Of a DNA stretch of 64,000 nucleotides, positions 17,172-57,578 are shown one piece after another. The notes under the pieces are model-generated. The model searched no databases, was not told the DNA's origin, and saw nothing but the letters and a program-made list of their open reading frames with translations. Every line of letters begins with the position of its first letter. Positions within the stretch are counted from its first letter, which is position 1. The translations under genes and the position numbers were made by a program. Source of the DNA: a virus; the IMG/VR virus record IMGVR_UViG_3300025012_000043, positions 32,001-96,000 of that record; one strand, given 5' to 3'.

Positions 17172-17240
17172 CAGGCTACCTCCCTAATTTCTGACGCTAC
17201 CTCACGATAGCTCTCGTGGCTGATCCCCAGCCCGGCAATA
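17160..17240 (-). ncRNA. Putative TnpB omega/reRNA scaffold, 3' part
   Basis: Two stem-loops in the last codons: GGCTG-GGGAT-CAGCC (17218-17232) and GCTATC-GTGA-GGTAGC with GNRA loop (17196-17211), then GGGAGG...GATGTCCA resembling an IS605 right end. Boundaries approximate. Confidence 0.45.
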
Positions 17241-18480: not shown

Positions 18481-21400
18481 CTACTCCCTAATTACCGCAT
18501 ATATAGTCTGCCCAACAATATCTGTTAACGCTTTGGCTATAGTATTATTCAATATATCGAGATTCACAATATCACCAACAACCTGCTTAATTAACATCCC
18601 CTCCATTTTTGATGGTTGCTTCATAAACCCAAGATTCTTGATCTTAATACCATATTGTGGCAATATTGGTTTACCAATTAATGTAAGCCCCTTGCCACGC
18701 TTACTACTGTATTTTACTATTGCCTTCAAAATAACTGGCGCAAATTTTTTGGCTAATGATGTCTTAATACACCCATAATTCACTCCACTAATAATCTTGT
18801 CATCTAAGTCTTCCGTATTAACATTAATATTCCTATCATGACATCCCTCTCGATCTATTAAAGAAACTGACCCAAATTTATTCCATGTTTGATCTTTCTT
18901 TGGATATATAACCTCAATCCCATTATTAATCCCATATATATATACGACTGATTGTGTTGGTAATGCTAGTGCCTTAGTAAGGGAGATGGCACCAACTGAA
19001 TCTGCTAATGCCTGATACAAATCCAATACTGGATCAACATCAAGAAGTCCTATAGTACCTGATTCATTTTCCAATATCTCAGCCGACTCATACTCTTCTT
19101 GCTTAACAAACCATGGCATAGTAATCATATTATTTGGTAGATCTAAACTAATCTGCCCATTCTCCATTGCTTTTTTATAGGCTGGCTTGTCAAATGCCCC
19201 AGATTCATTATATTTAATTGTCGCAGTTTTAATAGCTATACTCTTAGTACGTACATATTTCTTAATCTCTTGTATGTTTTTAACGATATCCTTCCTATTT
19301 AATGTGGGATCAAACAAAAACGCTCCAGCCAATGCTAATTGTGAAATCTGGTTAGATGGGACGCTTTTGTTACGATTAATAAAATCAGCAAAACATTTAT
19401 ATTCTCCATTCATCTCACGTTCTTTAATAACCACTTTAGCCGATGATTCACCGATTCCCTTCACAGAAGACAAGCCAATATAAATAGTATCTTTGAAAGC
19501 AGAAAATACTAGTTTTGACTTATTAATATTTGGCCTAGAGATCTTAATCCCCAATTTCTTACAGTCCGCTATTATAATTGAATGCTGGTCTGAATCAGTC
19601 ATTATAAGATTGGCGCACATAAATTCTGTAGGATAATTTGCCTTCAAATATGCGGTTATATAAGTAATAACACCATACGCCGCAGCATGAGCCTTCGGCC
19701 ACATATACCTTGCTGATGGCTTAATAAGCCCAAATATATATTCAGCGAATTCTTTTGTTTTGCCAAATCTAATAGCACTAGTTATAAATTTCTCACCCTC
19801 TTCGTCAATTTCTTTGACTAATTTTTTACCAACAACCTTGCGCAAATGATCGGCTTCGGCCATTGAATATCCAGCCACCCTACGTGCTATTTCCATGATC
19901 TGTTCTTGAAATAACATCATATAATGTGTAGGCGCAAGAACATCATCAATACATGGGTCAATTTTTGTCGGTGGCATCAACCCATTTTTAGTTCTTATAT
20001 ATTTCTCAGCCATAGACATTTTGATTACTTCATCATATGCCAAGGCCCCTGGCCTATATAAAGCATTCATGGCTATGATATGCTCAAATTCTGTAGGAAT
20101 CAATCCTTTCATCATATTTGTAAACCCATCACTTTCAGCCTGGAAAACACGACACGTATTGCCATCTTGTAATAATTTAAACGTTTTCATGTCATCAAGC
20201 GGAAGTGTATATGGGTCAATATTAACCCCGTGATTTTCTTTGATCAACTCACATGTGATCTTAATAATATCTAATGTTGTTAAGCCAAGCAAATCAAATT
20301 TAACCAGCCCTACCTTTGATGCGACATACATATCACACATAAGCGCTGTTTCTGACTCACTATTTACCTTAAATGTTGGTATTATATCACTAAACCGATC
20401 TTTTGAAATAATAACTCCCGATGCATGGATAGACACCGATTTAGGATTACCAGATAATCCCATAGCAAAATCATACCAGCTTTTATCAACACGTGGGGAT
20501 TTAAAGGCTTTCATCTTCTCCATAGCAGATATGATACTCTCTTCTTCTCTTTTGGCGGTCTCTTCAAATAACTCCTTGGGTTCCAATTCATCCAATGCCC
20601 CGAGATCTTTAATTAAATCATCTACTCGCCTACGATCTGGTTCTATTGCTCGGATGGCCTCACGAATAGCTAACTTAGTAGTCATATTATTAAATGTTGC
20701 AATCTTAGATACCTTGTCAGCACCAAAGATTGATTGAACTATCTCAATTACTTCTGGCCGCCGCCGTTGTTCAAAATCAATATCAACATCTGGAAGATCA
20801 ATACGACTGGGATTTAAAAACCTTTCAAACATGAGTTTATATTTAATCGGATCTATACCAGAAATCCCGAGAGCAAACAATACAAGACTACCAGCACTAC
20901 TTCCCCGGCCCGGTCCAATCAAGATCCCTCTTTTACGCACTTCCTTAATAACAATACCAAGGATTAGAAAGTAAGAAGAAAAATTGAGTTTCGAAATAAT
21001 CCCCAATTCATATTCTAATCTATCTTTGTACTCCTTGGTGGCAACCCCTCTAGTTTTAAGGCCCTCATAAGCAAGAGTCTTTAAATATTCATCATTGGTC
21101 TCTATGTTTGCAGGTAAGAACGACTTGGGTAATTCTGGCATATACTTACCCATTTTGAACTCTATATTATAATCTTCTAACTTTTCATAGATCTCCATGG
21201 TATTATCAAATGCTACCTTAGGAATATTTGACGCAAACTTCTCTAATTCACCACGAGTCTTCATATAATATTCAGCATTCAGAATAGCTGGCTTACTTAT
21301 GTCGTCTGGAAATTCACCATATACTACCCCACGTTTTCTATCTAAAATATGTGTACCAAACTGAAGTGATAACAGTGCATCCTGAACTTCAGCATCACTT

Positions 21401-22017
21401 TTATTTAAATAATGAACATCATTAGTAATAATCGGCTTAATATGAAACTTTTCTGCCATTTCTAACATAACATCTACCCAACCAGCTTGCATTGGTACGC
21501 CGGTTTCCATGACTTCCACATAAAGGTCATCTTTAAAAATTGATTTTAAACGAGATACTGTGGCCACAGCCTCATCAGCTTTATCATTATAAATGTCTCT
21601 AGCAATTAACCCGTGTAAACATGCAGTTGAACAGATAATGCCCTCACTAAATCTGGCAATAACATCTAATGACATTCTTGGCTTATAATAAAAATATTCA
21701 AAAGCATCAGACACTATCTTTATTAAATTTTGATATCCAATACGATTCTTAGCGATTAAAACTATATGCCCAAGTTTCTCTCTACCTTCAAATTTCCTCT
21801 CTTTTGATACATACCCCTCAATGCCTATGCCGCACTTCAAATCAAACTCTTTGCAAGCCTCGTAAAATGGAATGGCACCAAACATTGTGCCATGGTCAGT
21901 TAAACAAGCCCCCTGAAACCCAAGCTTCTTGGTATGCTCTACTATTTTCTTAGGTGATGTGGTGCCGTCCATCAATGAATAAAATGAGTGCTGGTGGCAA
22001 TGTATGAAATCTTGCAT
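18481..22017 (-). CDS. dnaE: DNA polymerase III alpha subunit (family C)
   Basis: PHP motifs HQH, TDHG, NDVH; GPGRGSSAGS, FERFLNPSR, catalytic PDVDID, HASG, KFDLLGL, KAHAAAY. Start set at MQDFIH. Confidence 0.97.
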   Translation of the reverse strand: MQDFIHCHQHSFYSLMDGTTSPKKIVEHTKKLGFQGACLTDHGTMFGAIPFYEACKEFDLKCGIGIEGYVSKERKFEGREKLGHIVLIAKNRIGYQNLIKIVSDAFEYFYYKPRMSLDVIARFSEGIICSTACLHGLIARDIYNDKADEAVATVSRLKSIFKDDLYVEVMETGVPMQAGWVDVMLEMAEKFHIKPIITNDVHYLNKSDAEVQDALLSLQFGTHILDRKRGVVYGEFPDDISKPAILNAEYYMKTRGELEKFASNIPKVAFDNTMEIYEKLEDYNIEFKMGKYMPELPKSFLPANIETNDEYLKTLAYEGLKTRGVATKEYKDRLEYELGIISKLNFSSYFLILGIVIKEVRKRGILIGPGRGSSAGSLVLFALGISGIDPIKYKLMFERFLNPSRIDLPDVDIDFEQRRRPEVIEIVQSIFGADKVSKIATFNNMTTKLAIREAIRAIEPDRRRVDDLIKDLGALDELEPKELFEETAKREEESIISAMEKMKAFKSPRVDKSWYDFAMGLSGNPKSVSIHASGVIISKDRFSDIIPTFKVNSESETALMCDMYVASKVGLVKFDLLGLTTLDIIKITCELIKENHGVNIDPYTLPLDDMKTFKLLQDGNTCRVFQAESDGFTNMMKGLIPTEFEHIIAMNALYRPGALAYDEVIKMSMAEKYIRTKNGLMPPTKIDPCIDDVLAPTHYMMLFQEQIMEIARRVAGYSMAEADHLRKVVGKKLVKEIDEEGEKFITSAIRFGKTKEFAEYIFGLIKPSARYMWPKAHAAAYGVITYITAYLKANYPTEFMCANLIMTDSDQHSIIIADCKKLGIKISRPNINKSKLVFSAFKDTIYIGLSSVKGIGESSAKVVIKEREMNGEYKCFADFINRNKSVPSNQISQLALAGAFLFDPTLNRKDIVKNIQEIKKYVRTKSIAIKTATIKYNESGAFDKPAYKKAMENGQISLDLPNNMITMPWFVKQEEYESAEILENESGTIGLLDVDPVLDLYQALADSVGAISLTKALALPTQSVVYIYGINNGIEVIYPKKDQTWNKFGSVSLIDREGCHDRNINVNTEDLDDKIISGVNYGCIKTSLAKKFAPVILKAIVKYSSKRGKGLTLIGKPILPQYGIKIKNLGFMKQPSKMEGMLIKQVVGDIVNLDILNNTIAKALTDIVGQTIYAVIRE

Positions 22018-22018
22018 G

Positions 22019-23077
22019 TTATCCTTTCTTACTGTTTCTTCTTGCGTACACATTATTAAATATTACATCCATAGTTTCTGGTAATAAAGTACTGGTTATA
22101 ATATTCAATTGTTTCTTTTCTATCGTATTCATGGCCTCCATAACCATTGATCTAATATTACCTGGAGCATGAATTAGTCCTGATATGGCATTATACCAAT
22201 CACGAGGCCGTTGCTCTTCTACTAATATACCATTTACACCATTAGTAATAACTTCTTGATATGGAACAATATTAGATGCCACTGTAACCGCACCAACCGC
22301 CGTATACTCTAACCATTTAATATTACTCTTACTCTTATTAAAAATATTGTGTTCAAGTGGTACTATACCAATATGTGGCTGAATAGATACCAATGTTTGT
22401 AGATAGTCTTTAACTGGTAACCAAGGTATATACTTAATACGAGTATCATCCTTTAGCCCTGCTGGTATCCATCCCATAAAAAACAATTTAATCTTATCAC
22501 CAAAGGTATCGAGTAACTTAATAATCGCTCCCTCTACACCCTTAAAATCATCAATATGTGAAGGCCCTCCAGCATATACTATGCGTATTTCTTTATCAAC
22601 ATTATATGGGCGCTGAGCAATAAAATTTTTGTCTAATTCAATCATATTAGGGATACAATAAATATTCCTATTATAACATTTCATTTGATTCTTTAAAAAT
22701 TCGGTAGAAACTATAACTGCATCCGCTGATTTCATAAAATTTCTAACATTTTGCTTAGCATTATTATCTATAAACTTATAGGCAGGATTTATGGGCCGTA
22801 CATTAAAGAAATCATCATCAGTTTCATATCCCACTATTGCACCAGATTCCTTTGCGGCATTCCATAACGGTTTAACTTTGTCCTCAAAATGCCTTTGGAA
22901 TATAATCATATCATAACAATACATATCAGCTATCTGTAATTCAGTAGCACAAACTATATGATATATATCAGTATTTAATTGTAAATACCAGGCTGGTAAC
23001 ATACACCGATAGTTTCCACAGCCTTGCCGATCGGAAAGCGTATATAACAATTTTCTTTTATTTACTCGCTTCCTCAT
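22019..23077 (-). CDS. GT-B glycosyltransferase (GT4-like)
   Basis: GCGNYR, FQR, YETDD, ADAVIVST, PN, GIVPL..N.FNKSKSNIKWLEY. Confidence 0.85.
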   Translation of the reverse strand: MRKRVNKRKLLYTLSDRQGCGNYRCMLPAWYLQLNTDIYHIVCATELQIADMYCYDMIIFQRHFEDKVKPLWNAAKESGAIVGYETDDDFFNVRPINPAYKFIDNNAKQNVRNFMKSADAVIVSTEFLKNQMKCYNRNIYCIPNMIELDKNFIAQRPYNVDKEIRIVYAGGPSHIDDFKGVEGAIIKLLDTFGDKIKLFFMGWIPAGLKDDTRIKYIPWLPVKDYLQTLVSIQPHIGIVPLEHNIFNKSKSNIKWLEYTAVGAVTVASNIVPYQEVITNGVNGILVEEQRPRDWYNAISGLIHAPGNIRSMVMEAMNTIEKKQLNIITSTLLPETMDVIFNNVYARRNSKKG

Positions 23078-24496: not shown

Positions 24497-27241
24497 TTAT
24501 TTGCAGCGACTCCATCCGCAAGCCGAGCACTCTATACACTTTGACATATGCACTACGGGATTTCCACACTCAGGACAAGCTTGTTTATATGTAATCGCTG
24601 AATCATGTTTATCCTTATTTTGAACCAATTTATTTTTATTCTCTTTTGCTCCTACATGAGTTTCTATCGCCACACATATGGCATCAGATAATGATGTAAT
24701 GGTACGCCCACCCTTATAGAAAGCCGTCTCCCCAGCGGAGATACCACGAAGTTGTTTCGTGATATATTTTGTAGACACACCACACCGCATAAGTAACGAT
24801 ACCAACCTACCAAGTGCTTCGGCTTCTGCTGCGATCGGTGACCCGGACCGCCCGGCCTTAATAATAACCTCACACAACCCAATATCATCTTCATTGACAG
24901 TGATTAGTGCGTCACCGAACCCAAAAGGTATCTCATATGTACGACCAGTTGGGGCCTCGATTCTAACTCTTGGCCCAAACCCACCATTCTGCTCAATTGG
25001 TTTGGCCTGTTGTCCGGAAGTCAAAACCTGCACACCCTTTGATCCATCACGATAAATAGTTACACCTTTACAACCAAGTTTATATGATAAACGATATGCC
25101 GCATCAATATCTTCTATTGTTGCGTCCTTCTTCATATTAATAGTCTTACTAATTGAATTACCAACATATTTCTGAAATGCTGCTTGCATACGTACGTGCC
25201 ACTCGGGAGCAATATCATGTGCAGTAACAAATATATACTTAATATCTTCTGGTATATTCATCTTCTGTACTGATCCATTGTGTTCATTAAATATGACATC
25301 AAATAGATCTGGGATATTTAAATTGCGTCTACGTATTTCCTCATCAAAATCGCCATGCAATTCACTCAATTTTTTATCGCCAAACGCCATACGATTATAT
25401 GCAACGGCGTATAAAGGTTCAATGCCTGATGATACACCAGCAATAAGAGCTATTGACCCAGTTGGGGCAATGGTAGTAACAATTGCATTTCTGCGGGCCT
25501 CACCAATCTTATCTAACTCCCAAGCTGGGAATATGCCTTTCTCTTTGCCTAATTCAATACTGGCTTCAATCGCACGAGTATTAATATACCCCATGATATG
25601 TTCTGCTTGCTCTAGCCCTTGCATTGAATTATATTGAATCCGCATCTTAATAAGTGCATCAGCAAAACCCATGACACCAAGACCAATCTTTCTGGTCTTC
25701 ATGATGGCATCTTTAATCTCTTGAAGAGGTTGTGGGCTAACATCAAGCACAGCATCCAAAAACCTAACAGCCAATGGTATTAACTTATTTAATTTTTCAT
25801 AATCCCACTCATAGATAACTACACCTTCTGAATCAACCTTTTTCTTTAGCATAGCAACAAGATTAATAGACCCCAATACACATGATTCAGAGGGATATAA
25901 TATTGTCTCACCACAATTTCGCCCAAACACACCACTAGAAACAACAAATTTACCATCTTTTTTGCTCGTTATTATCCCATAATTATGATTGTCATCCACA
26001 GTTATATTATATACATCATCATATCCATAGAATCCCACTGATTTTACTTTATGATTATAATATTGAACCGCCTCATCTAAGTTTTTATTATATTTATATT
26101 TATCTCTATGCCTATGTATATTGGCAACACTATTACTATTAAATGGCATTAAACTATCGCCTTCTTTTAACTCCTTAAGTTCTACCTTCTCACCATTACG
26201 CCTAATAAATTTGTGATCTGGTGTCGCAATAACCGTCGAATCGTCATCGAGTGTGAGCTTCCAAACTTCCTTCTTTTCTCCCGTAAGCCTAGGATTTTTG
26301 CCCCATTTGATCTCTACCTGTCCATTCTCCAAATTACGTGAATACACTGGCACATCATTACCCTCTTCAACTAATTGTCTAATACTAACCGCATTACGTC
26401 CATCAGCAACGGCAATTAGTGTATCTCCAACGACACATGGGTTTGATGCTCGCAAAATCCCAAGCGATGGCGTTGGATTGTCACGATTAACTCTATCAAT
26501 CCACAATACACCTGGGTCACCAATACGCCACGCCATCGACACAATCTTATCCCATACTTCTTTGGCATCTAATTCTCCGACTTTCTCTTTATTACCATAG
26601 ACAGGAAAATATAAATTATATTTCTTACCCTCGTCTCTTGCCTTCATAAATTCATCGGTAACAGCAACTGAAATATTCATATTCTGCGCAGCACCAGAAT
26701 GCTTCATATTAATAAATTCAAGAATGTCTGGATGATGGACAGATAAAATACCCATATTGGCTGATGGTCTAATACCACCTTGATCAACTACTGACATTGC
26801 ATCAGCATAAATTTTAATAAACTGAACAACACCACGAGTCTTATATCCGGTTGACTTAATAATAGTATCTCGTGGTCTAATATTAGACCAGTCCATCCCG
26901 ACACCACCACCAGCCTTTTGAATTAAGGCAGCCTTGCGATAAGTACTAAAAATATCATCTAATGAATCCTGGACATCCAACACAAAGCACGCTGGATAGG
27001 AACATCCATTCCCAGTACCAGCGTTTACTAATGTTGGGGTATTTGGTAAAAATTCTAGATTGGCCATCATGTTAGTATATGATTCAACCAATTCTTCTTT
27101 CTTCTTCTTGGGAAGCTCTTCACAACTGGCTATATCCTTAGCTACCCGTGAAAACAATTCCTCTGGCGTTTCATATGTAGACCCCTTTTTACGAAGGTAC
27201 CTTCTACGCAGTACCGTAAGAGCATTTTGGCTTAAGTGCAT
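24497..27241 (-). CDS. nrdJ: Class II (B12-dependent) ribonucleotide reductase with intein
   Basis: FLPNTPTL, ACFV, GGGVG, NPC|GE, C.LGSINL, TTIAPTG, SISKT, YRDGS, C-terminal TSCPD-like domain and Zn ribbon. Confidence 0.95.
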   Translation of the reverse strand: MHLSQNALTVLRRRYLRKKGSTYETPEELFSRVAKDIASCEELPKKKKEELVESYTNMMANLEFLPNTPTLVNAGTGNGCSYPACFVLDVQDSLDDIFSTYRKAALIQKAGGGVGMDWSNIRPRDTIIKSTGYKTRGVVQFIKIYADAMSVVDQGGIRPSANMGILSVHHPDILEFINMKHSGAAQNMNISVAVTDEFMKARDEGKKYNLYFPVYGNKEKVGELDAKEVWDKIVSMAWRIGDPGVLWIDRVNRDNPTPSLGILRASNPCVVGDTLIAVADGRNAVSIRQLVEEGNDVPVYSRNLENGQVEIKWGKNPRLTGEKKEVWKLTLDDDSTVIATPDHKFIRRNGEKVELKELKEGDSLMPFNSNSVANIHRHRDKYKYNKNLDEAVQYYNHKVKSVGFYGYDDVYNITVDDNHNYGIITSKKDGKFVVSSGVFGRNCGETILYPSESCVLGSINLVAMLKKKVDSEGVVIYEWDYEKLNKLIPLAVRFLDAVLDVSPQPLQEIKDAIMKTRKIGLGVMGFADALIKMRIQYNSMQGLEQAEHIMGYINTRAIEASIELGKEKGIFPAWELDKIGEARRNAIVTTIAPTGSIALIAGVSSGIEPLYAVAYNRMAFGDKKLSELHGDFDEEIRRRNLNIPDLFDVIFNEHNGSVQKMNIPEDIKYIFVTAHDIAPEWHVRMQAAFQKYVGNSISKTINMKKDATIEDIDAAYRLSYKLGCKGVTIYRDGSKGVQVLTSGQQAKPIEQNGGFGPRVRIEAPTGRTYEIPFGFGDALITVNEDDIGLCEVIIKAGRSGSPIAAEAEALGRLVSLLMRCGVSTKYITKQLRGISAGETAFYKGGRTITSLSDAICVAIETHVGAKENKNKLVQNKDKHDSAITYKQACPECGNPVVHMSKCIECSACGWSRCK
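25916..26437 (-). mobile_element. Mini-intein (174 aa) in NrdJ
   Basis: Begins CVVGDT after ASNP; block B ATPDHKF; block F DVYNITVDDNHNY; ends GRN before +1 Cys (CGET); no endonuclease domain. Confidence 0.9.
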
Positions 27242-27259: not shown

Positions 27260-27733
27260 TTATTCTGAAAATCCCGCTGTACTTCCGAAACCATTCTCAC
27301 CTCGTTCAGTCTTGGGCAATTCATCAACATATTCTATACGATATACAACCGATTGATGTAGCACTAACTGCGCCAGTCGGTCTCCCCTATTAACCACTAC
27401 ATCATATTTATTGGGATTCAATGCAAACACAAGCAAAGCGCCAGTAAAGCCCTCATCTATTGTCCCATCCATAATAAGTAACTTCTTTTTAGCAAATGTT
27501 GAACTACGAGGTCTGATTGATGCCCACGTTCCCCAGGGCAATTTTATACTAATTCCAGTTGGGATATTTATCATACCACCACTCGGGACAATAATTTTCT
27601 CTTCTTCAATACATACAACCAAGTCTAAACCTATATCACCTTCTCGGGCTGGCTTTAATACCGGGGGTATAAATGCCGCATTATCTAATACTTTTACCTG
27701 TAGCCTATTGCTCATTAAACTCTCCTCCTTCAC
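27260..27733 (-). CDS. dut: Trimeric dUTPase-family pyrophosphatase
   Basis: GLDL, PRSS, GTIDEGFTG, RLAQ, RGENGFGST. Confidence 0.9.
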   Translation of the reverse strand: MKEESLMSNRLQVKVLDNAAFIPPVLKPAREGDIGLDLVVCIEEEKIIVPSGGMINIPTGISIKLPWGTWASIRPRSSTFAKKKLLIMDGTIDEGFTGALLVFALNPNKYDVVVNRGDRLAQLVLHQSVVYRIEYVDELPKTERGENGFGSTAGFSE

Positions 27734-28217
27734 AAATATTCAATGACTCACCAAGCGTAAACTCCTCTGTGAGCTCTATAAAATTTTCAGCATTTATCTG
27801 CACAATCTTATTATTTAAAATATTCCCTAATTCTCTATAATTAGTAATCCATCTAGTATTAAATTGTTTGGCGACCCATTTCATATATACTGATATCTTT
27901 ACATCTGCGTCCGCGCACAAAATGACCGATTGATGTAATTTGTTTTTATTATCTATACACCACGAAACCTCTAACCACGTACCAACAGTTGGTATTCCAT
28001 TGATATAAACTACAACAATGTTGGCCCTTTCTAAGGCCAAACGATTAACATCAACTATATAATCTGGGTCCACATCACCCATTGGTATAAATGCCCTGCC
28101 TGGCATAAATAATGTAACATTTTGGTCCTTGTTAACTAAATTGTTAATTACATCATAATAAGCCAATTTATCGGTATTATTATCAACATTCCCCGCACAA
28201 TATACAGAGACTGACAT
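27705..28217 (-). CDS. Nucleoside 2-deoxyribosyltransferase / dNMP N-glycosidase-like protein
   Basis: VYCAG, F.P, N..AL.RANIVV, TVGTWLEV (conserved Glu). Confidence 0.65.
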   Translation of the reverse strand: MSVSVYCAGNVDNNTDKLAYYDVINNLVNKDQNVTLFMPGRAFIPMGDVDPDYIVDVNRLALERANIVVVYINGIPTVGTWLEVSWCIDNKNKLHQSVILCADADVKISVYMKWVAKQFNTRWITNYRELGNILNNKIVQINAENFIELTEEFTLGESLNICEGGEFNEQ

Positions 28218-28769
28218 TTACTCCTCCATCATCCTAAGTAGTGTCATCACCCTATCAACCTCTGCCGAAGTATTCCCATTAATTAGTGACTCTAAAAACT
28301 TAATTTTATCGTGTCTAAGCATATTGAAACATATGTCTCTAATTTGTTGCATATTTGTTTCATCCTTAGTAATCCTCTTCATTATTACTTCAGCAGTATC
28401 ATAATCATCACGATTCCTTTTAATTAAGCGCCCAATCCGTTTAATCGCTGGCGCATCAATATAGACCACGCTCCATAAATATGCCTTGAGGTTCTTGCTA
28501 ATCCAGGTAACCTGTCCCTCTGTCCTAGGAACTCCATCAACCAATATAATTTCCCTATTCGTTCTATTAATGCGATCACTGATCCCTCCCATGATAGCAT
28601 CATCATTATAATAAAGATCACCATTAGCCAGATCCTTATGTGAATCAGCAAGACTTCTAACTATATCGCCAGATGAAATAAATTCTGCCCCAACTATGGC
28701 TGATACTTGTTTAGAAATGGTAGTCTTACCCGAACCAGCCGGACCGATTACCCAGAGAATTCGTCTCAT
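28218..28769 (-). CDS. Adenylate-kinase-like NMP kinase
   Basis: GPAGSGKTT, ISSGDIVR, LVDGVPRT..Q, R.RDD. Confidence 0.9.
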   Translation of the reverse strand: MRRILWVIGPAGSGKTTISKQVSAIVGAEFISSGDIVRSLADSHKDLANGDLYYNDDAIMGGISDRINRTNREIILVDGVPRTEGQVTWISKNLKAYLWSVVYIDAPAIKRIGRLIKRNRDDYDTAEVIMKRITKDETNMQQIRDICFNMLRHDKIKFLESLINGNTSAEVDRVMTLLRMMEE

Positions 28770-40257: not shown

Positions 40258-41349
40258 TCACTCAGATATTACAGTATTTTCAGCCTCTCCTAAGAGCCCA
40301 TTAGTATCTCTATTAATTAGAGCTTGTACACATTTAGCCCGTACCTCTTCCAATAATCCCAAATCAGTTACAAGCAACTCTTTAAATTTGTTCTCTCCCA
40401 TTGCCTTCTTATCCCCAAATGAGAACCAACTACCAGTAGTCTTAATAATGCCGCACATTTTCGCCACACCAAATGTATCATCAACAATATCAACACCAGT
40501 GTCTAGGTTGACAATGAACTCTGCTGGCTCATTCACACGTGCCACTTTATTCTTCATTACTCTATACGCTACCTTGATAGCGACTTCCTCTTCCACCATC
40601 TTAGTAGGAGTAAGTGGCACTTTACGTCTAATACTCTCAGTTTTACGCGCATACATTTCATATGAAATAAAAAACCCTGCCGTATTACCGCCAGCAGCCT
40701 TCTTATTAGATCCATAGGTCACCATTGGGTTTGCGCGTTCTTGGGAGATGAAGAGAACGAAACATGCCGGGTTCATATTGAGATATGAGTTGACTTTTGG
40801 TAACATTTCAGCCATTAACTGTGCTGATGCAGCCTTAAGTCTACCTTGGTCAACCGTTGCTGCTTCCATCTTTACTTTTGGCACTAAGGCAGGTATTGAA
40901 TCTAAAATGATAAGATTATACTCCCTACTCTTGATCAATTCAATAAGGATATCAATCCATTCCTCCCCAAACAAGGGATCAAGTAGAACACCATCCTTAT
41001 CTACCCTTTCATCTTTCGATGAAATAATGAACAGTTTGGCTGGATCGATACCCATATTCTTAGCAAATTTCATATCAAATGTTCCCTCAACGTCAAGGAA
41101 CGCTACCTTACCATTGTCCTTCTGAACTCTTGTGGCAAAACAAGTGGATAGTAGGGTCTTACCCGATTGCTTCTCACCCCACACTAATCCCATTCTGCCA
41201 CCAAGAAATCCATTAGTACCAAGGGCTAAGTTCAAACTCAACACCCCTGAATCAAGTAAGATGGGTAGACGCTCTGTCCGGTCTACACCGGACATCATGG
41301 TCGTCGCTCCGTAGCGAGAATTAATTACATCTACAACGCTTTTTGCCAT
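40258..41349 (-). CDS. recA: RecA/UvsX recombinase
   Basis: LNLALG, GEKQSGKT, FLDVE, ILDSIPALVP, ISQER, GG, KNKVA, GSWF. Confidence 0.95.
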   Translation of the reverse strand: MAKSVVDVINSRYGATTMMSGVDRTERLPILLDSGVLSLNLALGTNGFLGGRMGLVWGEKQSGKTLLSTCFATRVQKDNGKVAFLDVEGTFDMKFAKNMGIDPAKLFIISSKDERVDKDGVLLDPLFGEEWIDILIELIKSREYNLIILDSIPALVPKVKMEAATVDQGRLKAASAQLMAEMLPKVNSYLNMNPACFVLFISQERANPMVTYGSNKKAAGGNTAGFFISYEMYARKTESIRRKVPLTPTKMVEEEVAIKVAYRVMKNKVARVNEPAEFIVNLDTGVDIVDDTFGVAKMCGIIKTTGSWFSFGDKKAMGENKFKELLVTDLGLLEEVRAKCVQALINRDTNGLLGEAENTVISE

Positions 41350-41424: not shown

Positions 41425-42720
41425 TTAAAGCTTCGCTAATGCTTCAACTAACGCATTTAGCCTTTCTTCTGACCACGTTGTAATTGACAATTCAGTAATG
41501 TCCTTATACGGACCATGCACAGTAGCTAGGAAATCAATCATATCCTTATCCGGCTTACCGGCAAATTTAATCTCAAATGTTTTGTTAATCAAATCAACAC
41601 GGCTGGTTGAAGTTTGACTTGTGCCACCAGTTAGCTTAGAGTAAGTAACCTTCATTCCGGGTTCTGGCTCTCCAGTAGGCTCATCAGCCTGCCTTTCACT
41701 AGGCTCTGGATTGTTTACTGCATTGATGAGCAACTGGATATTACCATTAGCACACAGATCAGAAATCCAAGCTGCTCCATTCTTAATTTCCTGCAAATTT
41801 GATGTATTGGCTAACCATTTAAAATAATCAAACTCATTTGTATCAATAAGATGACCAAACGATCTACCAGTAAAACGCTTACCGACATCTACAATTAATG
41901 CGCGAACAGCAGTATATTTATTGATATCATCTAGAGTTGGAAATCCGCCACCAAGAGCCTTGGGCTGTTCGCCCACAGGAAGGGCTGCTGATTCCCCCTC
42001 GCCAGAGATTTTACCAGTAGAGACAAATTCCCATGCCTTTACTGGATCAACGTTTTCAAATGCAAGGATCTGTTCAAATGAAATCATACTATAATCGACA
42101 TCCTCATTAAATACTGATGGATCCTGGGCCTCAGCTTTATAAGTAACCTGTTGCCCATTCTTCTCCCGCCATATGAGAATATCACGCCCAGCCAAAGAAT
42201 TCTTAGCAGTAATGATCCGCACAAATTCACTACGAAGTTCGTTACCAAACTTGAGTACCATTGGTAAATTGGCTTCATAATTCCACAGTGTGATAGTGTG
42301 CTGCGGCGTCATGCCAAGATGACTATCAACCTCAACACCACCACGCTTCCGTTTCTGGTCCCTAGGGGTCAACATATTAAACATTGGGTCTAACTTACCA
42401 CACAATCCTGCGGCACATTCACGCTTTGCACCACGCGCAGTACCCTGAATATTACACAAGAAAGTACGATATTTACGGACAGTCTGTCGCGTTACTGGGT
42501 TTGTAACACTGGGTACTCTATGATACCACCCCGATACACATTCAGACTCAACTAGGTCAGTGACACCGGCACTACATGCACATGTAACATTGGGCCAATT
42601 AGGATAATATCCATCCTTACCACATTTCTTACACTTAAACGGCATAAGAATACGAACTTTATATTTCTTATTATCTTCAATCTTCATAAACCCAAAACGG
42701 GTATCTTTCCAGGCGCACAT
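41425..42720 (-). CDS. Probable single-stranded DNA-binding protein (gp32-like OB fold) with Zn motifs
   Basis: FMKIED...VRIL, WYHRV, GRDILI.R...VTY pattern; directly upstream of recA. Confidence 0.55.
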   Translation of the reverse strand: MCAWKDTRFGFMKIEDNKKYKVRILMPFKCKKCGKDGYYPNWPNVTCACSAGVTDLVESECVSGWYHRVPSVTNPVTRQTVRKYRTFLCNIQGTARGAKRECAAGLCGKLDPMFNMLTPRDQKRKRGGVEVDSHLGMTPQHTITLWNYEANLPMVLKFGNELRSEFVRIITAKNSLAGRDILIWREKNGQQVTYKAEAQDPSVFNEDVDYSMISFEQILAFENVDPVKAWEFVSTGKISGEGESAALPVGEQPKALGGGFPTLDDINKYTAVRALIVDVGKRFTGRSFGHLIDTNEFDYFKWLANTSNLQEIKNGAAWISDLCANGNIQLLINAVNNPEPSERQADEPTGEPEPGMKVTYSKLTGGTSQTSTSRVDLINKTFEIKFAGKPDKDMIDFLATVHGPYKDITELSITTWSEERLNALVEALAKL

Positions 42721-43116: not shown

Positions 43117-44298
43117 TTATTCATTATAAATATCAAAATGCACTGTGTCTTCCTTTAAAGGACCAGTTGATCCCCATAGAATTGGAATATTATACTCTTC
43201 TTCAAATGCCCTAATCCAAGCTTTAGATTCTTGTGAAAGATCTTCGGCTTTGTTAACTTTATAATCTTTGACATTTAAATAATCAAGGAAGCACAAACCG
43301 ATACCAGTGAACCGATTGATCATTGCAGTCTTCTTAAATTGTTCATGAGAAAATTCAAATACCCGCCTAACCCTTTTTGTAACTGTTGTGATCTCCTTAA
43401 AAGAGCCTTCTGGTGCACCAGCCCTTCTTTCAACCTCTGCCCACGTAATTTCCTGAGAACCCATAGAACCACTATCACCAGCCACCCTAATAGGATAAGG
43501 ACGAATAACGCCAATAATGTCAGTAACCACTAGTGGTGAAATACCGGCCTCACTTACCCATCCTCCAGCGTTGGTGTCCCTTGATGTAGTTTTTGGATAT
43601 AAACCGTGGTGCAATGAAAGGACTGATCCCTGCGTCCCCTCCAATAGCACCGACTCACCATCGTCGATTAACTGATTAATCATTTCTGTCGTATCACAAC
43701 AGAATTCCTTAATCCCTGGCCAATCTTTAGCTAAAACCACTGGTCCACGTGGTGATGCACCACGCCAAATCTTATCTGCCAATGCAGCACCACACCCTTC
43801 ACGCGTTGATCCAACCATCTTCCATAGGTCATTAGCACTTAACTTATCACATTTTGTGCACGGATCAACGATTTCTGGAAGTCCCTGCTTAATATCCTGC
43901 CATGCCTTACATTCCATTGGCTTATGAGCATAATCACAAGGCTCAGCCTGTCCATATTCGGCCAACGTATGTTTAGGCTCAATAATAACCACGTTTGGAT
44001 GAATAAAAACACGTTTTTCAATGTTTGGATCGTATTTCTTAATCATTTCAATCTCTTTAAAGAATAACTCTGGAATGATCATCCCACCGGCACCAATGAT
44101 CAACTTGGCATCCATCCGGGTCCACCCACAAGGGATTGTCTGCATGACGACTTTATCGCCATTATAATAAATTGTGTGTCCAGCGTTAGGAGCCCCAGTT
44201 CTCACGTGTACACTATAGTCGTCAGCAATAACATTGGCAATCTTGCCCTTGCCTTCTGATCCAGCGGCCCCTCCCACCAATACTGTTACTTTAGACAT
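43117..44298 (-). CDS. purZ: PurZ/PurZ0-type adenylosuccinate synthetase homolog
   Basis: GSEGKGK (Ser14 where PurA has catalytic Asp), PNAGHT, GST..G, LEGTQG, YP.TTSRD, YPIRVAG, TTVTKR.RRV, FLDY, STGP. Confidence 0.75.
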   Translation of the reverse strand: MSKVTVLVGGAAGSEGKGKIANVIADDYSVHVRTGAPNAGHTIYYNGDKVVMQTIPCGWTRMDAKLIIGAGGMIIPELFFKEIEMIKKYDPNIEKRVFIHPNVVIIEPKHTLAEYGQAEPCDYAHKPMECKAWQDIKQGLPEIVDPCTKCDKLSANDLWKMVGSTREGCGAALADKIWRGASPRGPVVLAKDWPGIKEFCCDTTEMINQLIDDGESVLLEGTQGSVLSLHHGLYPKTTSRDTNAGGWVSEAGISPLVVTDIIGVIRPYPIRVAGDSGSMGSQEITWAEVERRAGAPEGSFKEITTVTKRVRRVFEFSHEQFKKTAMINRFTGIGLCFLDYLNVKDYKVNKAEDLSQESKAWIRAFEEEYNIPILWGSTGPLKEDTVHFDIYNE

Positions 44299-44614: not shown

Positions 44615-44833
44615 TTACTCTCCCTCTCCTTCTTCTGATGTCTCTTCTTCTATATCCCCTGAATCAATCTCAAACGCAATATAGGTTTTACCACTCTCCT
44701 CGTCTACAATAATCTGTGCCTCTGGTCCCTCCTCATTAGCCTCCTCTGTAGGCTCTTCCTCTGAAGCCACTACCGGAACTGGCTCACCTGGGTCTATCGC
44801 AGTTTCAAACTTGTCATCATCACTAGGCATCAA
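44615..44833 (-). CDS. Extremely acidic small protein
   Basis: 72 aa, only two Lys and no Arg; GGAGG RBS. Confidence 0.6.
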   Translation of the reverse strand: MMPSDDDKFETAIDPGEPVPVVASEEEPTEEANEEGPEAQIIVDEESGKTYIAFEIDSGDIEEETSEEGEGE

Positions 44834-46680
44834 TTACTACCTCCATTCGCTTGTTCAACAAGCTTATTAAACTCCTCTTCTGAATATATCGCAACATCTT
44901 TGTGTGTTGACAACTGTCTAACAGTATTTACTATAGCACTATTACCAAATTTGCCATAAATAAATCCAGTAATATATGGAGCAAACTGTGAAACAACCCT
45001 ACCGCCATATTTATTTATAATGTTTTCATATTTAATTCTATCTCTATCATAGAGTAAACCATCGATAAAAAAGGTTTTATTATATAGTGGATGGTCAAGG
45101 GATTGCTTGAAATATTTAAACATTGTTCGGACAAATTGAATTTTATTGGTCTCCATAAATCCTAAAAGTTTACTGATGGTGATACTATCAAACCCAATAC
45201 GTGATAATGTTGTATCGGTAAAAATGTGCTTGGTAATTAAATTTATATACATACTATTAAAATTTTTCATGATCTCGTTGCATTCTTTGATATTTAAAAA
45301 TGGAATAATGATATTTAAAAATTCACCAGGCATCTCTCTACTTTTTTGAACTCCCTCAAATATTAATTTGTATTCATTATCCACTATCTCTATTGAATCT
45401 ATGACTGTATAAATATCATTTAAGTTAATTATATCATGTCTGTGTAAAAAATCGGCCATCACATATTTATCAACTGTCGGACAAAATTTGTCAATCCACA
45501 CCTGAATACTATTTAATACGACTGTTGGGCACCTAGGATTAATACAATATATATTGCCATTACTAATATCAACACTATGCTTACATTTTGGACACGAAGA
45601 TGTGATGAAGGGTGTTTTATTACTCCCATACTTTTTGTCTAAAACCAACACATCATTTACATTTGTACCAGTAAACATATCACCAACACAATAATTACCA
45701 ATATCCTTAGTAGTAAAATTGGGGAAAGTTTTGTAAAGTGTATAATTTGATTTATCTATTGTTACATATTGGTCTTTAGTATCAAACTCACCACCAAAAT
45801 TAAATGCAACTACTGGTATGATACGTACTTTACCACCATCAATCATCGTATCCCATGAGATATTAAGAACCGCCAGCAAATTATTGGCCCCTATATTAGT
45901 GGTTACACCCCATTGGTTCAATGTTTTCATAGATAAAAGTTGAATCATTTCCATACTACTATATGATGTCAATATCTTATTACATTTGTATGGTAAATTG
46001 CCACCGCCAATCATTAACTTAGCACTTTCTATAGTACGCGTCCATTTGGGTATTGTCGTATTCAGCATAGTCGCTGTCTTAAACCCAACATTTCTAAATG
46101 TCTCAAATAGATCATCAATAGTATCTGCCACGGACTGAGTAAAAGAAGCATAGGTAACAATAAAATCACATTCTAATATCCGTTCATCTGGAATTGGTGA
46201 AGTAAGTAATTTATACAATTCGAGCTCTGGTAATTTAGACAAAATCGCCCCGTGGATATACCCATCAGCAGCTACCATCCGTCCAAGGGGCATATTATTC
46301 AAAAAATAAATGTTATGTGTTATATCTACATACAAACCCAGACTAACAACCCACAATGCACTAACTATTTGTTTATTCCTAATCTCTAATCGTATGTTTG
46401 GCACATCAGGTAAAAATATTACAGACAAATAATCTGAATATTTACCAGATAATTTATAATTGATGGTTGACCAATCCGATAACTCAGTAATATTATTAAT
46501 ATCATTAAATATATTACTATGTTCCATCTTGCCTTCTGGCAATACAAACTTTTCACCCCTAGCTAAATAATGATTGGGCAAAACGCTTGCTAATTTATCA
46601 ACATCCTCAGTTTTAACAATATCATACAATTCTTTATTTGTCATAGAACCCTCCATAAATTTGTCCGCAAAGTTTCTCAA
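44830..46680 (-). CDS. Degenerate NAD-dependent DNA ligase (LigA)-like protein
   Basis: Colinear with LigA including C4 Zn finger (CPKC...CINPRC) and BRCT (KTFFIDG...GGRVV...YSEEEF); KxDG appears as LPDV. Confidence 0.75.
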   Translation of the reverse strand: MRNFADKFMEGSMTNKELYDIVKTEDVDKLASVLPNHYLARGEKFVLPEGKMEHSNIFNDINNITELSDWSTINYKLSGKYSDYLSVIFLPDVPNIRLEIRNKQIVSALWVVSLGLYVDITHNIYFLNNMPLGRMVAADGYIHGAILSKLPELELYKLLTSPIPDERILECDFIVTYASFTQSVADTIDDLFETFRNVGFKTATMLNTTIPKWTRTIESAKLMIGGGNLPYKCNKILTSYSSMEMIQLLSMKTLNQWGVTTNIGANNLLAVLNISWDTMIDGGKVRIIPVVAFNFGGEFDTKDQYVTIDKSNYTLYKTFPNFTTKDIGNYCVGDMFTGTNVNDVLVLDKKYGSNKTPFITSSCPKCKHSVDISNGNIYCINPRCPTVVLNSIQVWIDKFCPTVDKYVMADFLHRHDIINLNDIYTVIDSIEIVDNEYKLIFEGVQKSREMPGEFLNIIIPFLNIKECNEIMKNFNSMYINLITKHIFTDTTLSRIGFDSITISKLLGFMETNKIQFVRTMFKYFKQSLDHPLYNKTFFIDGLLYDRDRIKYENIINKYGGRVVSQFAPYITGFIYGKFGNSAIVNTVRQLSTHKDVAIYSEEEFNKLVEQANGGSN

Positions 46681-53443: not shown

Positions 53444-53932
53444 TTATATTGTAATATTGTTCTCTGTTGAGAAATCCGCTATTAGTCGGCCCTCCAAATG
53501 ATGATATTCATGTTGGAAAATCCTAGCCAAAAATCCATTGAGAGGACAATTAGTAGTTCTGTTATTATTTATATCGGTGAATGATACTCGTATATTTTCA
53601 TTTCTGGCAATTAATATATTGATACCAGGTACTGACAAACATCCTTCATTAATTATTTTCATAGAAGTATCTTTATGTAAAATAATCGGGTTAATAAATA
53701 TCATCTTACGTCCAGCATAATGTATTATAAATATGCGTTTATTGATACCAACCTGTGGAGCAGCCAAACCAACACCAGTAGGGTTCTTTTCTAGGGTATA
53801 ATGCATATTTCGTATCATTGTTTTAATTGTTGGTGTTATTTCTTCAACCTCAGTGTTGACTCCTTTTAAAATCTTTAAATCATCAGTATTAAACGCATTT
53901 AATATTCGTAATTTGTGTGTGTGTAGTTTCAT
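53444..53932 (-). CDS. def: Peptide deformylase
   Basis: GVGLAAPQVG, EGCLS, QHEYHHLEG. Confidence 0.95.
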   Translation of the reverse strand: MKLHTHKLRILNAFNTDDLKILKGVNTEVEEITPTIKTMIRNMHYTLEKNPTGVGLAAPQVGINKRIFIIHYAGRKMIFINPIILHKDTSMKIINEGCLSVPGINILIARNENIRVSFTDINNNRTTNCPLNGFLARIFQHEYHHLEGRLIADFSTENNITI

Positions 53933-55206: not shown

Positions 55207-56472
55207 TTATTCTCGTACCGGTATGACTTCACCGAATGGCACCTTACTCGCACCTCCTACAACCACCCATAATACTGGATAGTCTGGTTTTTTAGAGGGG
55301 AATGAACCAAAAGTGTCTGTTAAATATACCAATACCTTTGGCTTTATCCTCTCTTTTGTTACACGCTTAAACACTGGCCGAAAATCTGTCCCACCACCTC
55401 CTTTAAATTTAATTTTGCCAGGCAATTGCCACACATTCAGTGAATTGGCCTCAATAAATTCATGTACATTGGCATCACATGTCATTATGTAGGTACGTTT
55501 AGATAAATGCGCCATACCAATTAGTTCAGCAAGAAACCTTCGTAGCATGTTGTCATCTATTGAACCACTGGTATCAATGGCTGCAACTATATCACCAACC
55601 TGTGTACCATATGATGATGGCATGAAAAACCCAATAGCATGAGACTTCTTTGAAGGATAAAGTTTAGTACGTTGATATCCACGACACTTGGATTCCATTA
55701 AATTCTTTAGTCTCACCCACCAATCAACCTGTGGTTCCAATATCTCTTTGATCAATCTATCCAGTCCAGCGGGTAATTTACCCTGCCCAGCGGCCCTGGC
55801 AACTTGTGTAGCTTTTACAATGGCATGTTTAACCTTTGTATTTTCATGATCTTCTCTCTGTTTCTGAATATGTGTATCAAATCCTGAAGGATTGCCATGT
55901 ATAGGACATTTATTATCTCCGTCACTACCATCACCATCACCATCATCAGATACACTCTGGCTATCCTTGCTATTCCCACTGCCACCACAATTACATTTTA
56001 TTTTTTTAGCTTTCTCCAGTAATACCTTATAAACTTCCTCAGCAACCACCTCATCTAATTTTATATCTTTCATAGATTGGATTTTGACAAGTGCGGCATC
56101 ATTCCACAAAGATATCTCTGTATCTCGTTGATTGAATGATATACTGTTCTTCTCTAGTAGGTGATTATCAACGATGTCCGCTGCGATATTAAATAATTGC
56201 TTGTCTTTATTCATCCCCCTTTGCATGTGATCCATAATGACATGAACTATTTCATGGCATAATGCAAATTTGATATTTTCAATGGATCCCAGCAACTTTA
56301 TTCTATTTGCATTCCAATATAAATTATATCCATCTGTTCCCATGATGGATACTGATTCTGTTTCTATGATTGGAAGAGACAATAATATCGTGGCCCAAAA
56401 TGGATGATCTCTTAACAGTTGGATCTTTGCTGCACTCATCATCTCTTTGGCATCAGTGACAACGGTTACCAT
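55207..56472 (-). CDS. DUF2201 metallopeptidase-vWA protein
   Basis: HPFW, TDG, HEIVH, MIDAS IDTSGS, GGGGTDFRPVF, YLTD; start at MVTVV after GGAGG. Confidence 0.9.
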   Translation of the reverse strand: MVTVVTDAKEMMSAAKIQLLRDHPFWATILLSLPIIETESVSIMGTDGYNLYWNANRIKLLGSIENIKFALCHEIVHVIMDHMQRGMNKDKQLFNIAADIVDNHLLEKNSISFNQRDTEISLWNDAALVKIQSMKDIKLDEVVAEEVYKVLLEKAKKIKCNCGGSGNSKDSQSVSDDGDGDGSDGDNKCPIHGNPSGFDTHIQKQREDHENTKVKHAIVKATQVARAAGQGKLPAGLDRLIKEILEPQVDWWVRLKNLMESKCRGYQRTKLYPSKKSHAIGFFMPSSYGTQVGDIVAAIDTSGSIDDNMLRRFLAELIGMAHLSKRTYIMTCDANVHEFIEANSLNVWQLPGKIKFKGGGGTDFRPVFKRVTKERIKPKVLVYLTDTFGSFPSKKPDYPVLWVVVGGASKVPFGEVIPVRE

Positions 56473-56496
56473 TAACCCTCCTGGGGCATAAAGTGG

Positions 56497-56524
56497 TTGG
56501 GTGGGGCATTTCTGCCCCACCCAA
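56497..56524. promoter_or_regulatory. Intergenic hairpin between MoxR and vWA genes
   Basis: Perfect 12-bp stem ttgggtggggca-tttc-tgccccacccaa with no U-tract on the minus strand. Confidence 0.5.
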
Positions 56525-56528
56525 TTTA

Positions 56529-57578
56529 CTATTTTTGCTGCAACAGATTCATTATTTTCTTGATGATTGGCTTAAACTTGTCTTCTTGAATCTCTACCAC
56601 TTTATCCAGGAATGAGGTTTTTACATCCACGATAAACTTCATTTGAAATTCTGGTGGTATTACTTCCAGAAACATGACAAGATGTTTTGCAATCTTGTGT
56701 GACATCGTTTGTTTATTGGCATAATGAAGAACCGCATACACAGTGGCAAACTGATTTGATAGTTCCATACTTTTAAATCCATCGGGGATTCTACCTTCCT
56801 CAACAATCGCCCGCACATCGACTTTAGCAAACGTCTCAAAATATGCTACGAAACTGACCGCAGCACCTTCACCAACACATGCATATGCCAGGTCATTAAC
56901 AGTTGTTAAGGATCTCTTATCAACGTTCATCCATTTATCACCGAGAGCCCCAGTAAGAACATCAGACAACATTACCCAAGTGCGTGGAGTTGGGCTTGCA
57001 TATTGATCCGGCATCAGCTTTAAGAGAAGGTCTGGCTGATAATCAAGAAACGATATAATCTGGGTGGCAACCCCAGTATCTTTTGCATATGCTTTCCAAT
57101 CTTGTAGAGATGATTCTACAATAAAATTTACTAACCGTGTCTTGAATGGTACGGAAGGCTCGTTGATATATGCGAAATCCTCGCGCCTATTACCAGCTAG
57201 AATAATGCGGGTTTGTGGTGGGGCTTCCCAGTTGTCTAAACTACGATCTAAAACTATACGCAGAGCCGCATTCTGTACTGATGGCTCTGCGCATGAAAAT
57301 TCGTCAAACATCAATATAGTAGGTTCATTGATGATAGGCAGGAAGTCCGCACGTGCCCATTTACTCACCCCATCTTTCATATAGGGGATACCACGTATCT
57401 CACTAGGTTCAAATTGGGCCAGCCGAATGTCAATAAATCGCATCTTGTTTTCTTTTGAAATTTGTTTAATAATACTACTCTTTCCTAAACCTGGGGCTCC
57501 CCATAAACCTATTGAAACTTGTGGTGAATTCATTATTACTGTGCGGATCAATTCCTTAACCTTACCAATTGTCGGCAT
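56529..57578 (-). CDS. MoxR-like AAA+ ATPase
   Basis: WGAPGLGKS, DIRL, MFDE, VQNA, AGNR, PTPRTW; paired with DUF2201/vWA. Confidence 0.9.
   Translation of the reverse strand: MPTIGKVKELIRTVIMNSPQVSIGLWGAPGLGKSSIIKQISKENKMRFIDIRLAQFEPSEIRGIPYMKDGVSKWARADFLPIINEPTILMFDEFSCAEPSVQNAALRIVLDRSLDNWEAPPQTRIILAGNRREDFAYINEPSVPFKTRLVNFIVESSLQDWKAYAKDTGVATQIISFLDYQPDLLLKLMPDQYASPTPRTWVMLSDVLTGALGDKWMNVDKRSLTTVNDLAYACVGEGAAVSFVAYFETFAKVDVRAIVEEGRIPDGFKSMELSNQFATVYAVLHYANKQTMSHKIAKHLVMFLEVIPPEFQMKFIVDVKTSFLDKVVEIQEDKFKPIIKKIMNLLQQK

Follow-up and report, generated by a model that had tools for sequence, protein, structure and literature searches.

A predicted GTP-type PurZ homologue with DmtZ-like, Dut and kinase helpers points to a possible 2-aminoadenine genome in large DnaE-encoding phages

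Could a large phage that carries a bacterial-type family C DNA polymerase (DnaE) hold 2-aminoadenine (Z) in place of adenine? The question is raised by a 64,000-nucleotide stretch of viral DNA (hereafter the window; bases 32001-96000 of the linear, 112,589-bp IMG/VR contig IMGVR_UViG_3300025012_000043), in which the gene at 43117..44298 on the minus strand encodes a 393-amino acid (aa) homologue of adenylosuccinate synthetase (PurA) with serine at the position of the catalytic aspartate. All window features given below lie on that strand, which holds nearly all genes of the contig. An initial annotation, made from the letters of the window, read the gene as a PurZ0-type synthetase of an AT-rich phage that might replace adenine with Z by a different toolkit; the base composition is as it described (36% G+C). 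Our analysis places the protein, as judged from its sequence, in a previously uncharacterised branch of the PurZ superfamily, outside both the PurZ and the PurZ0 subgroups, where it is predicted to act as a GTP-using N6-succino-2-amino-2'-deoxyadenylate synthase.

The reading frame is intact, starting from an ATG at 44298-44296 with a GGAG ribosome-binding site approximately 8 nt upstream. Its P-loop reads GSEGKGK (residues 13-19), and Ser14 (codon TCA, 44257..44259) occupies the position of catalytic Asp13 in E. coli PurA; because TCA differs from GAT and GAC at all three bases, the serine is not the product of a single-base sequencing error. The substrate-side motifs YPIRV (residues 268-272, 43483-43497) and TTVTKRVRR (residues 304-312, 43363-43389) are followed by the nucleoside triphosphate (NTP)-base site F337-L-D339-Y340 (43279..43290), which combines the Asp of PurA and PurZ0 (TKLD / SMAD) with the Phe and Tyr of ATP-using PurZ (NFxNY). 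The S377-T-G-P motif (43159..43170) is the same as the guanine-contacting STGP site of PurA, S414-P417 in the E. coli enzyme, whereas ATP-type PurZ has an aromatic residue and Gly there. The serine P-loop, YPIRV, TTVT and FLDY had all been noted in the initial annotation, and each lies where it was placed within the open frame. A further feature is an insert of approximately 40 residues (about 115-157; 43828..43956) directly before the GSTREG nucleotide-phosphate loop, with C121, C130, C147 and C150 arranged as C-x8-C...C-x2-C. In the alignment, most members of the protein's clade have this four-Cys insert, which PurA, PurZ and PurZ0 lack; it was modelled with a predicted local distance difference test score (pLDDT) of 76-90, and it probably binds zinc.

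The alignment comprised our protein, four ATP-type PurZ (phiVC8, SH-Ab 15497, S-2L, and PMBT28), three PurZ0 (Archimedes, Ghobes, and Wayne) and PurA from E. coli, three other bacteria, and one archaeon (the short form). Ser-type proteins are marked by serine at the Asp13 site, (Y/F/H)PIRV in place of the xxTRV of PurA, a G-(N/D/T)-S-G loop and TTVT(K/N)xxRR, and our protein has all of these signatures; its YPIRV, G-D-S-G and TTVTKRVRR on the substrate side are common to the crystallised PurZ and PurZ0 enzymes, unlike PurA. The NTP-base site varies by family, reading TKLD in PurA, S-M/F-A-D or T-M-L-D in PurZ0, N-F-x-(N/Q)-Y in ATP-type PurZ, and C-F-L-D-Y in our protein, with Asp339 aligned to the Asp of PurZ0 SMAD/SFAD/TMLD and of PurA TKLD. 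Since Asp339 and STGP are kept as in GTP-using enzymes, GTP is predicted as the donor nucleotide, and it is the most likely one. The aromatic residues of the site correspond to F295 and Y298 of phiVC8 PurZ, its base-stacking Phe and Tyr (bioRxiv 10.1101/2025.10.22.683976). The serine is a constant feature of this group: all 118 proteins that span the P-loop among the 120 best metagenome homologues have G-S-(E/C) at this site, as do all of the 70+ readable homologues in GTDB.

Database and structural comparisons ranked the solved relatives in one order. The protein matched PF00709 in Pfam (E, 1.4e-50) and PHROG 1211 (E, 4.4e-66), and by sequence its solved relatives were the short PurA of Pyrococcus horikoshii (6e-47), Archimedes PurZ0 (7VF6; 7.5e-39), phiVC8 PurZ (3e-31), and S-2L PurZ (3e-19). 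An AlphaFold model (pLDDT, 91.4; predicted template modelling score, 0.90) was built with 60 relatives; its first row is the cluster representative, P0001, and this sequence and the window protein differ at a single residue (P101T). By fold, P. horikoshii PurA (5K7X; TM-score by target, 0.92) was again first, ahead of PurZ0 7VF6 and phiVC8 PurZ.

The phylogenetic position of the protein was analysed in a careful maximum-likelihood tree (IQ-TREE; 69 rows; LG+C20+F+G4 by posterior mean site frequencies). All Ser-type proteins, including PurZ and PurZ0, split from the bacterial and archaeal PurA proteins, the short ones among them, with a support of 100/99, which bears out the choice of PurZ over PurA in the initial annotation. 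Our protein falls in a clade of its own, an 18-row group of metagenome proteins of large phages (100/93). The other supported Ser-type lineages are ATP-type PurZ with Bacillus phage vB_BpsS-140 (100/98), PurZ0 with 13 metagenome rows (94/77), and a purely cellular clade (100/100), and the backbone among them, including the relation of our clade to PurZ0, is not resolved in this tree. The PurZ0 assignment of the initial annotation therefore stands in part: the retained Asp does align with that of PurZ0 and PurA, whereas the protein sits in a separate clade, outside the PurZ0 group. Nor does it belong to PurZ in the strict sense, as it has GSEGKG rather than GSTGKG, C-F-L-D-Y, STGP and a score below the curated cut-off, and lies outside the clade of PurZ and vB_BpsS-140. 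With PurA it shares the fold, and neither the catalytic Asp, a place in the PurA cluster nor a score above the curated cut-offs (264 against 368 for the archaeal-type NCBIfam model NF003295; 211 against 396 for TIGR00184). By these sequence features it is a member of the PurZ superfamily, carrying its signatures and forming a single clade with PurZ and PurZ0 to the exclusion of PurA, and it is PurZ0-like in its predicted donor site without being a member of the PurZ0 group.

If the enzyme makes a Z precursor, which genes could supply the remaining steps? A tightly packed trio (27260-28769) lies 15 kb from the synthetase gene, between a primase-helicase and ribonucleotide reductase. Its first gene (28218..28769) encodes a short, 183-aa nucleoside monophosphate (NMP) kinase of the ADK / UMP-CMP kinase type, a candidate kinase for dZMP and other dNMPs. 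The second (27705..28217) encodes a 170-aa DmtZ-like protein of the NDT fold, a predicted dAMP N-glycosidase / deoxyribose-5-phosphate transferase, and the third (27260..27733), which overlaps the end of the second, a 157-aa dUTPase (Dut) homologue, a candidate DutZ that would convert dATP, dGTP and dUTP to the monophosphates. Directly downstream of the trio lies the gene for the ribonucleotide reductase large chain (24497..27241), with an intein (PF14890) and a TSCPD domain. The NDT-like and Dut genes surfaced in phmmer searches with Archimedes proteins. In work published in 2026, the helpers of PurZ0 phages were described as DutZ, which turns dATP into dAMP and dGTP into dGMP, and DmtZ, an NDT-fold enzyme that hydrolyses dAMP; dutZ was present in 98/98 and dmtZ in 85/98 of the PurZ0 genomes in NCBI, and Wayne has both in a single fusion protein, the NDT part being N-terminal and the Dut part C-terminal (PMC12884076).

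The NDT-like protein resembles DmtZ both in its catalytic residues and by homology. In Ghobes DmtZ, the catalytic triad is Tyr6/Asn77/Glu103 and Asp12 specifies adenine, and mutation of these residues or of Val11 and Pro57 abolishes or lowers activity (PMC12884076); Tyr6, Val11, Asp12, Pro39, Asn58 and Glu83 of our protein align with Tyr6, Val11, Asp12, Pro57, Asn77 and Glu103 of Ghobes DmtZ. In hhalign, Ghobes DmtZ was matched with a probability of 92.6% and the DmtZ domain of Wayne with one of 83%. Its sole tblastn match in 50,697 phage genomes was Archimedes gp53, which is placed as gp53 (DmtZ) is in Ghobes and aligns with our protein at the catalytic residues. The structural model (pLDDT, 80) matched MilB, BcmB, DNPH1/Rcl and NDTs in Foldseek (E, 3e-4 to 1e-3; TM-score, about 0.5-0.66), structures also reported for the Wayne domain, with unrelated flavodoxin-like folds scoring alongside. 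The Pfam NDT model gave E 0.0024 for our protein, which is below the cut-off, and the orthologue in the related record G009 scored above it. As far as sequence can tell, the protein is DmtZ-like. The Dut homologue shares 40% identity with the DutZ domain of Wayne and 34% with Ghobes DutZ, has Phe in motif III where Duts have Tyr, and scored 101 against an NCBI dUTPase cut-off of 102.6. Its order with the NDT-like gene is that of the fused Wayne DmtZ-DutZ, and it is by linkage, not by its sequence, that it is a candidate for the DutZ role.

The replicase is the other distinctive component. A DnaE-type family C polymerase of 1190 aa (18481..22053), with PHP, Pol III alpha, fingers and HhH domains, was the only polymerase found. 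In phmmer searches, the whole 112.6-kb contig yielded no match to DatZ, MazZ, a family A polymerase (DpoZ/PolA) or the S-2L PrimPol, and family searches of the contig gave no HD-domain, MazG or DUF550 match, so that it does not hold a classical Z-cluster. DatZ and MazZ were also absent from the 92% complete G006 and the 100% complete G009. The initial annotation had anticipated both the sole DnaE and the lack of DatZ and MazZ in the window, and both observations extend to the whole contig. Its idea of a different toolkit holds for the polymerase family, the phage size and the lineage, whereas genes that match the helper set of PurZ0 phages lie in the window at 27260-28769. A gene for a PurB-like lyase was found neither in the contig nor in G006, nor among the larger open reading frames (ORFs) of the window. 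Beside dnaE, a group-1 glycosyltransferase gene (22019-23077), described as directly downstream, overlaps it at the ends and is kept in G006.

The same combination recurs in relatives. Relatives of the synthetase are encoded at 190 IMG/VR loci, and four of the records (G006, G007, G008, and G009) were examined whole. The closest, G006, is a 178-kb record that encodes a synthetase of 83% identity and is collinear with our contig at 65-78% nucleotide identity. DnaE and one Dut are present in all four, the complete kinase-NDT-Dut trio in G006 and G009, and the kinase and Dut in G008; homologues of DatZ, MazZ, PolA and PrimPol, as well as HD and MazG family matches, were found in none of the four. 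The more distant G007, G008 and G009 encode a PurB-like lyase, which in G008 adjoins the PurZ-like gene. A 300-aa Dut ORF of G007 was considered as a Wayne-type NDT-Dut fusion and rejected, as its 170-aa N-terminal part is not NDT-like by hhalign (1.3%) or alignment. DnaE was present in 6/6 of the large relatives checked that carry the PurZ-like clade of our protein, and in 10 of 50 PurZ-like-bearing IMG/VR records, including the complete G009, G013 (with terminal repeats) and G023. It also occurs in four smaller records (G018, G036, G037, and G038; 35-50 kb, 46-93% complete; loci L129, L159, L160, and L161), three of which (L129, L160, and L161) have a DatZ homologue near the PurZ-like gene, with MazZ/DUF550 as well in L129. 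These small contigs indicate that the pairing of DnaE with PurZ is not confined to the large-phage clade; most small PurZ-like records are of the PolA and Dut (Wayne-like) type. One large phage has another type of toolkit: in G010 (the record of L116; complete, 183,765 bp, with terminal repeats), which lacks DnaE and Dut, the PurZ-like gene adjoins that of a family A polymerase, and the HD-domain family is matched weakly. A megablast search with 20 kb of our contig against the 50,697 phage genomes returned no match. Near-identical sequence occurs in approximately 20 sequencing runs, all in the form of assembled contigs, which come from groundwater, soil and sediment and belong to 16 studies. 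Family membership, diagnostic residues, gene linkage and co-occurrence are matters of direct observation in this group.

The closest system by mechanism is the actinophage PurZ0/DutZ/DmtZ pathway (Ghobes, Archimedes, and Wayne; 7VF6; PMC12884076). The two are alike in the GSE P-loop, the NTP-site Asp and the lack of DatZ and MazZ, and also in their helpers, a Dut homologue and an NDT-fold enzyme that has the catalytic residues of DmtZ, arranged as in the Wayne fusion. They differ in that our enzyme, at about 30% identity, belongs to a separate clade and has GSEGKG (GSEAKG in PurZ0), F-x-D-Y (M/F-A/L-D-Q in PurZ0) and the four-Cys insert, and in that its Dut lies outside the DutZ group. The phages differ as well: the PurZ0 phages are 43-45 kb actinophages with the PolA DpoZ-1, which is absent from our contig, G006 and G009, whereas ours are AT-rich phages of 100-180 kb with DnaE and a kinase joined to the helpers. 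The classical PurZ-DatZ-MazZ systems with DpoZ or PrimPol (phiVC8, S-2L, SH-Ab 15497, and PMBT28; 6FM1 and 7ODX) belong to the same superfamily, with the same Asp-to-Ser change, PIRV and TTVTK, and our enzyme has Phe and Tyr at the F295/Y298 positions; unlike it, they have GSTGKG, Asn/Gln for Asp339 and an aromatic residue for Ser377, consistent with ATP use, and our phage is without DatZ, MazZ, DUF550, PolA or PrimPol. The archaeal short PurA (P. horikoshii, 5K7X/2D7U), the best match in sequence and fold, has the same short architecture, GTP-site Asp and STGP, and differs by its catalytic Asp, xxTRV, the lack of a Cys insert and the 100/99 split. Among isolated phages, the best match is gp48 of Bacillus phage vB_BpsS-140 (MH884512; 31.8% identity), which shares the module purZ, a protein of approximately 400 aa, recA, ..., helicase and primase, plus an adk-dut pair; it is a 55-kb phage, and gp48 groups with ATP-type PurZ (NFANY). 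Gp250 of mycobacteriophage Bxz1 (cluster C1, 156 kb; L233:18833-20161) is a PF00709 gene of a large phage with the same PHROG-derived RefSeq name, and differs in keeping the Asp (GYGDAGKG), in ATRHG and in a long, PurA-like form; it is not PurZ. As this Asp-type protein is also called '2-aminooxy adenylosuccinate synthetase', the PHROG-derived name is misleading and not decisive.

In the literature searched, Z-genome phages are described as small and are sorted into seven gene-sharing groups, whose polymerases, the family A enzymes DpoZ-1 and DpoZ-2, parallel PurZ0 and PurZ (PMC12884076). Phage S-2L is reported to replicate by PrimPol, with a polymerase that is non-selective and relies on dATP removal (PMC8065100). 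No paper joining PurZ with DNA polymerase III was found in that literature, and relative to it several features are new: DnaE as the replicase, the size of the genome, the four-Cys insert, the kinase joined to the helpers and the PurB-like lyase that some relatives encode.

How would these genes work together? In the proposed pathway, the PurZ-type enzyme would activate a purine monophosphate at O6 with a nucleoside triphosphate, most likely GTP, and would add aspartate, accepting dGMP instead of IMP and yielding N6-succino-2-amino-dAMP. Host PurB, or the phage PurB-like lyase in the more distant relatives, would remove fumarate to give dZMP, which the phage NMP kinase and the host NDP kinase could raise to dZTP. 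Meanwhile, dAMP would be destroyed by the DmtZ-like enzyme, dATP would be depleted, and the phage DnaE would place 2-aminoadenine opposite T. We consider it probable that this GTP-type PurZ branch and its DmtZ-like, Dut and kinase helpers lead to Z-DNA copied by DnaE, a reading in which we infer every substrate, the donor and the Z in DNA. For the lineage as a whole, the chances are slightly better than even that these groundwater and soil phages of 100-180 kb carry a 2-aminoadenine genome written by DnaE with their own GTP-type PurZ bearing a zinc-binding insert, a DmtZ/Dut pair, an NMP kinase and sometimes a phage PurB.

Several observations weigh against a Z-genome. The contig is approximately 76% complete (CheckV), and a dedicated DatZ-type dATPase was not found in it. 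The acceptance of dZTP by DnaE would be an assumption of the pathway itself. The synthetase scored 199.9 bits against the cut-off of 300 for the NCBIfam PurZ model NF038379. BLAST placed the Dut homologue at 36-39% identity to Duts of Z-phages and canonical phages alike, and a quick tree united the Duts of our phage group, placing them outside the DutZ group; they also lay outside six canonical phage Duts (support of 99 by the SH-like approximate likelihood ratio test). Finally, Ser-type homologues with the same motifs occur at 455 GTDB loci. In 5/5 genomes checked, the cellular homologue is an extra copy beside a canonical PurA, and most of the cellular proteins form one clade in which the enzyme carries a P-loop kinase as its N-terminal fusion partner. 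A DUF7002 protein follows this fusion in 54/54 loci, and an M78 peptidase matching CapP of cyclic-oligonucleotide-based antiphage signalling systems (CBASS) precedes it in 40/54. This three-gene operon of CapP-like M78 peptidase, kinase::Ser-type-PurA fusion and DUF7002 (GTDB loci L017-L084, e.g. L017:4029-7719, L030, L061 and L079) is found in both bacteria and archaea, in at least 54 genomes. No PADLOC model matched the PurZ-like protein, the fusion or DUF7002, and the literature searched held no match for the fusion or DUF7002. The operon seems to be a cellular system, possibly an undescribed one acting in defence or nucleotide modification, rather than a phage genome-chemistry module. Because Ser-type enzymes occur in such cellular operons, the Ser signature alone is no proof of Z-DNA, and the cellular clade serves as a warning against calling Z-genomes by this signature.

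In one alternative, PurZ-type chemistry operates without full replacement, so that purine deoxynucleotide pools are reshaped, Z is partial or conditional, or the enzyme serves counter-defence, and the packaged DNA is mostly adenine. The lack of both a DatZ-type dATP triphosphohydrolase and a Z-selective PolA, the position of Dut outside the DutZ group, and the roles beyond genome chemistry suggested by cellular Ser-type enzymes with a CapP-like regulator are all consistent with it. However, PurZ0 phages, which lack DatZ, arrive at Z-DNA by way of the same kinds of helper, DutZ and DmtZ (PMC12884076), S-2L is reported to manage with a non-selective polymerase and dATP removal (PMC8065100), and our NDT-like protein keeps all of the DmtZ residues, including the adenine-specifying Asp12. 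We regard this alternative as unlikely.

Less probable still, at a low likelihood, is a product other than plain 2-aminoadenine (for example, a Z with additional modification or a different purine substituted at N6/C2), which would be made from a substrate other than dGMP. The separate clade with its unique four-Cys insert beside the nucleotide-phosphate loop, a hybrid F-x-D-Y site not seen among characterised enzymes, and a glycosyltransferase gene that adjoins dnaE and is conserved in G006 would fit such chemistry; yet every substrate-side signature matches PurZ and PurZ0, the helpers are of the Z-pathway type, and no further base-modifying enzyme is linked to the gene. An ordinary auxiliary PurA that raises AMP from IMP during infection is very improbable: for all its PF00709 fold, its best PDB sequence match to an archaeal PurA and the Asp-type PurA-like genes of large, DnaE-encoding phages such as Bxz1, which may be an example of that strategy, the catalytic Asp is Ser throughout the clade, the split from PurA is supported at 100/99, the scores fall below every PurA equivalog cut-off, and a linked dAMP-destroying enzyme would be senseless for boosting AMP.

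The genes around the synthetase form a conserved module of purZ, a protein X, recA, ..., and helicase. Protein X is a conserved 431-aa protein (41425..42720) with a Cys-rich N-terminus, situated between the PurZ-like gene and the gene for a RecA/UvsX-like recombinase (40258..41349), and it has no match in Pfam, PHROGs, NCBIfam or the PDB sequences. The order of the PurZ-like gene, a conserved protein of approximately 430 aa and recA recurs in large relatives and in vB_BpsS-140, where weak similarity to gp50 is found at that place. The protein could bind single-stranded DNA or mediate recombination, or it could belong to the Z module. A 616-aa ORF (44830-46680) immediately upstream of the PurZ-like region has a weak match to NAD-dependent DNA ligase in its C-terminal part only (PHROG 3869; E, 1.9e-6). 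Elsewhere in the window, a TnpB / Cas12f-like gene (OrfB_IS605 and TNB; 17171-18247) lies between dnaE and an SbcD-like phosphoesterase, and the regions 53444-53932 and 55207-57578 encode a peptide deformylase and a pair formed by a DUF2201 metallopeptidase/VWA protein and a MoxR-like AAA ATPase.

If the favoured reading, Z-DNA copied by DnaE, is true, Z-DNA systems would for the first time extend beyond the small PolA/PrimPol phages, and it would mean that a bacterial-type replicase is able to copy Z-DNA. The PurZ family would then gain at least one functional branch, which combines a donor site of the GTP type with an additional insert that binds metal, and the pathway would be portable to a bacterial-type replisome, of use for engineering Z-DNA in cells. 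If large DnaE phages do hold Z-DNA, isolate collections would greatly understate how widespread the Z base is in the viromes of soil and groundwater.

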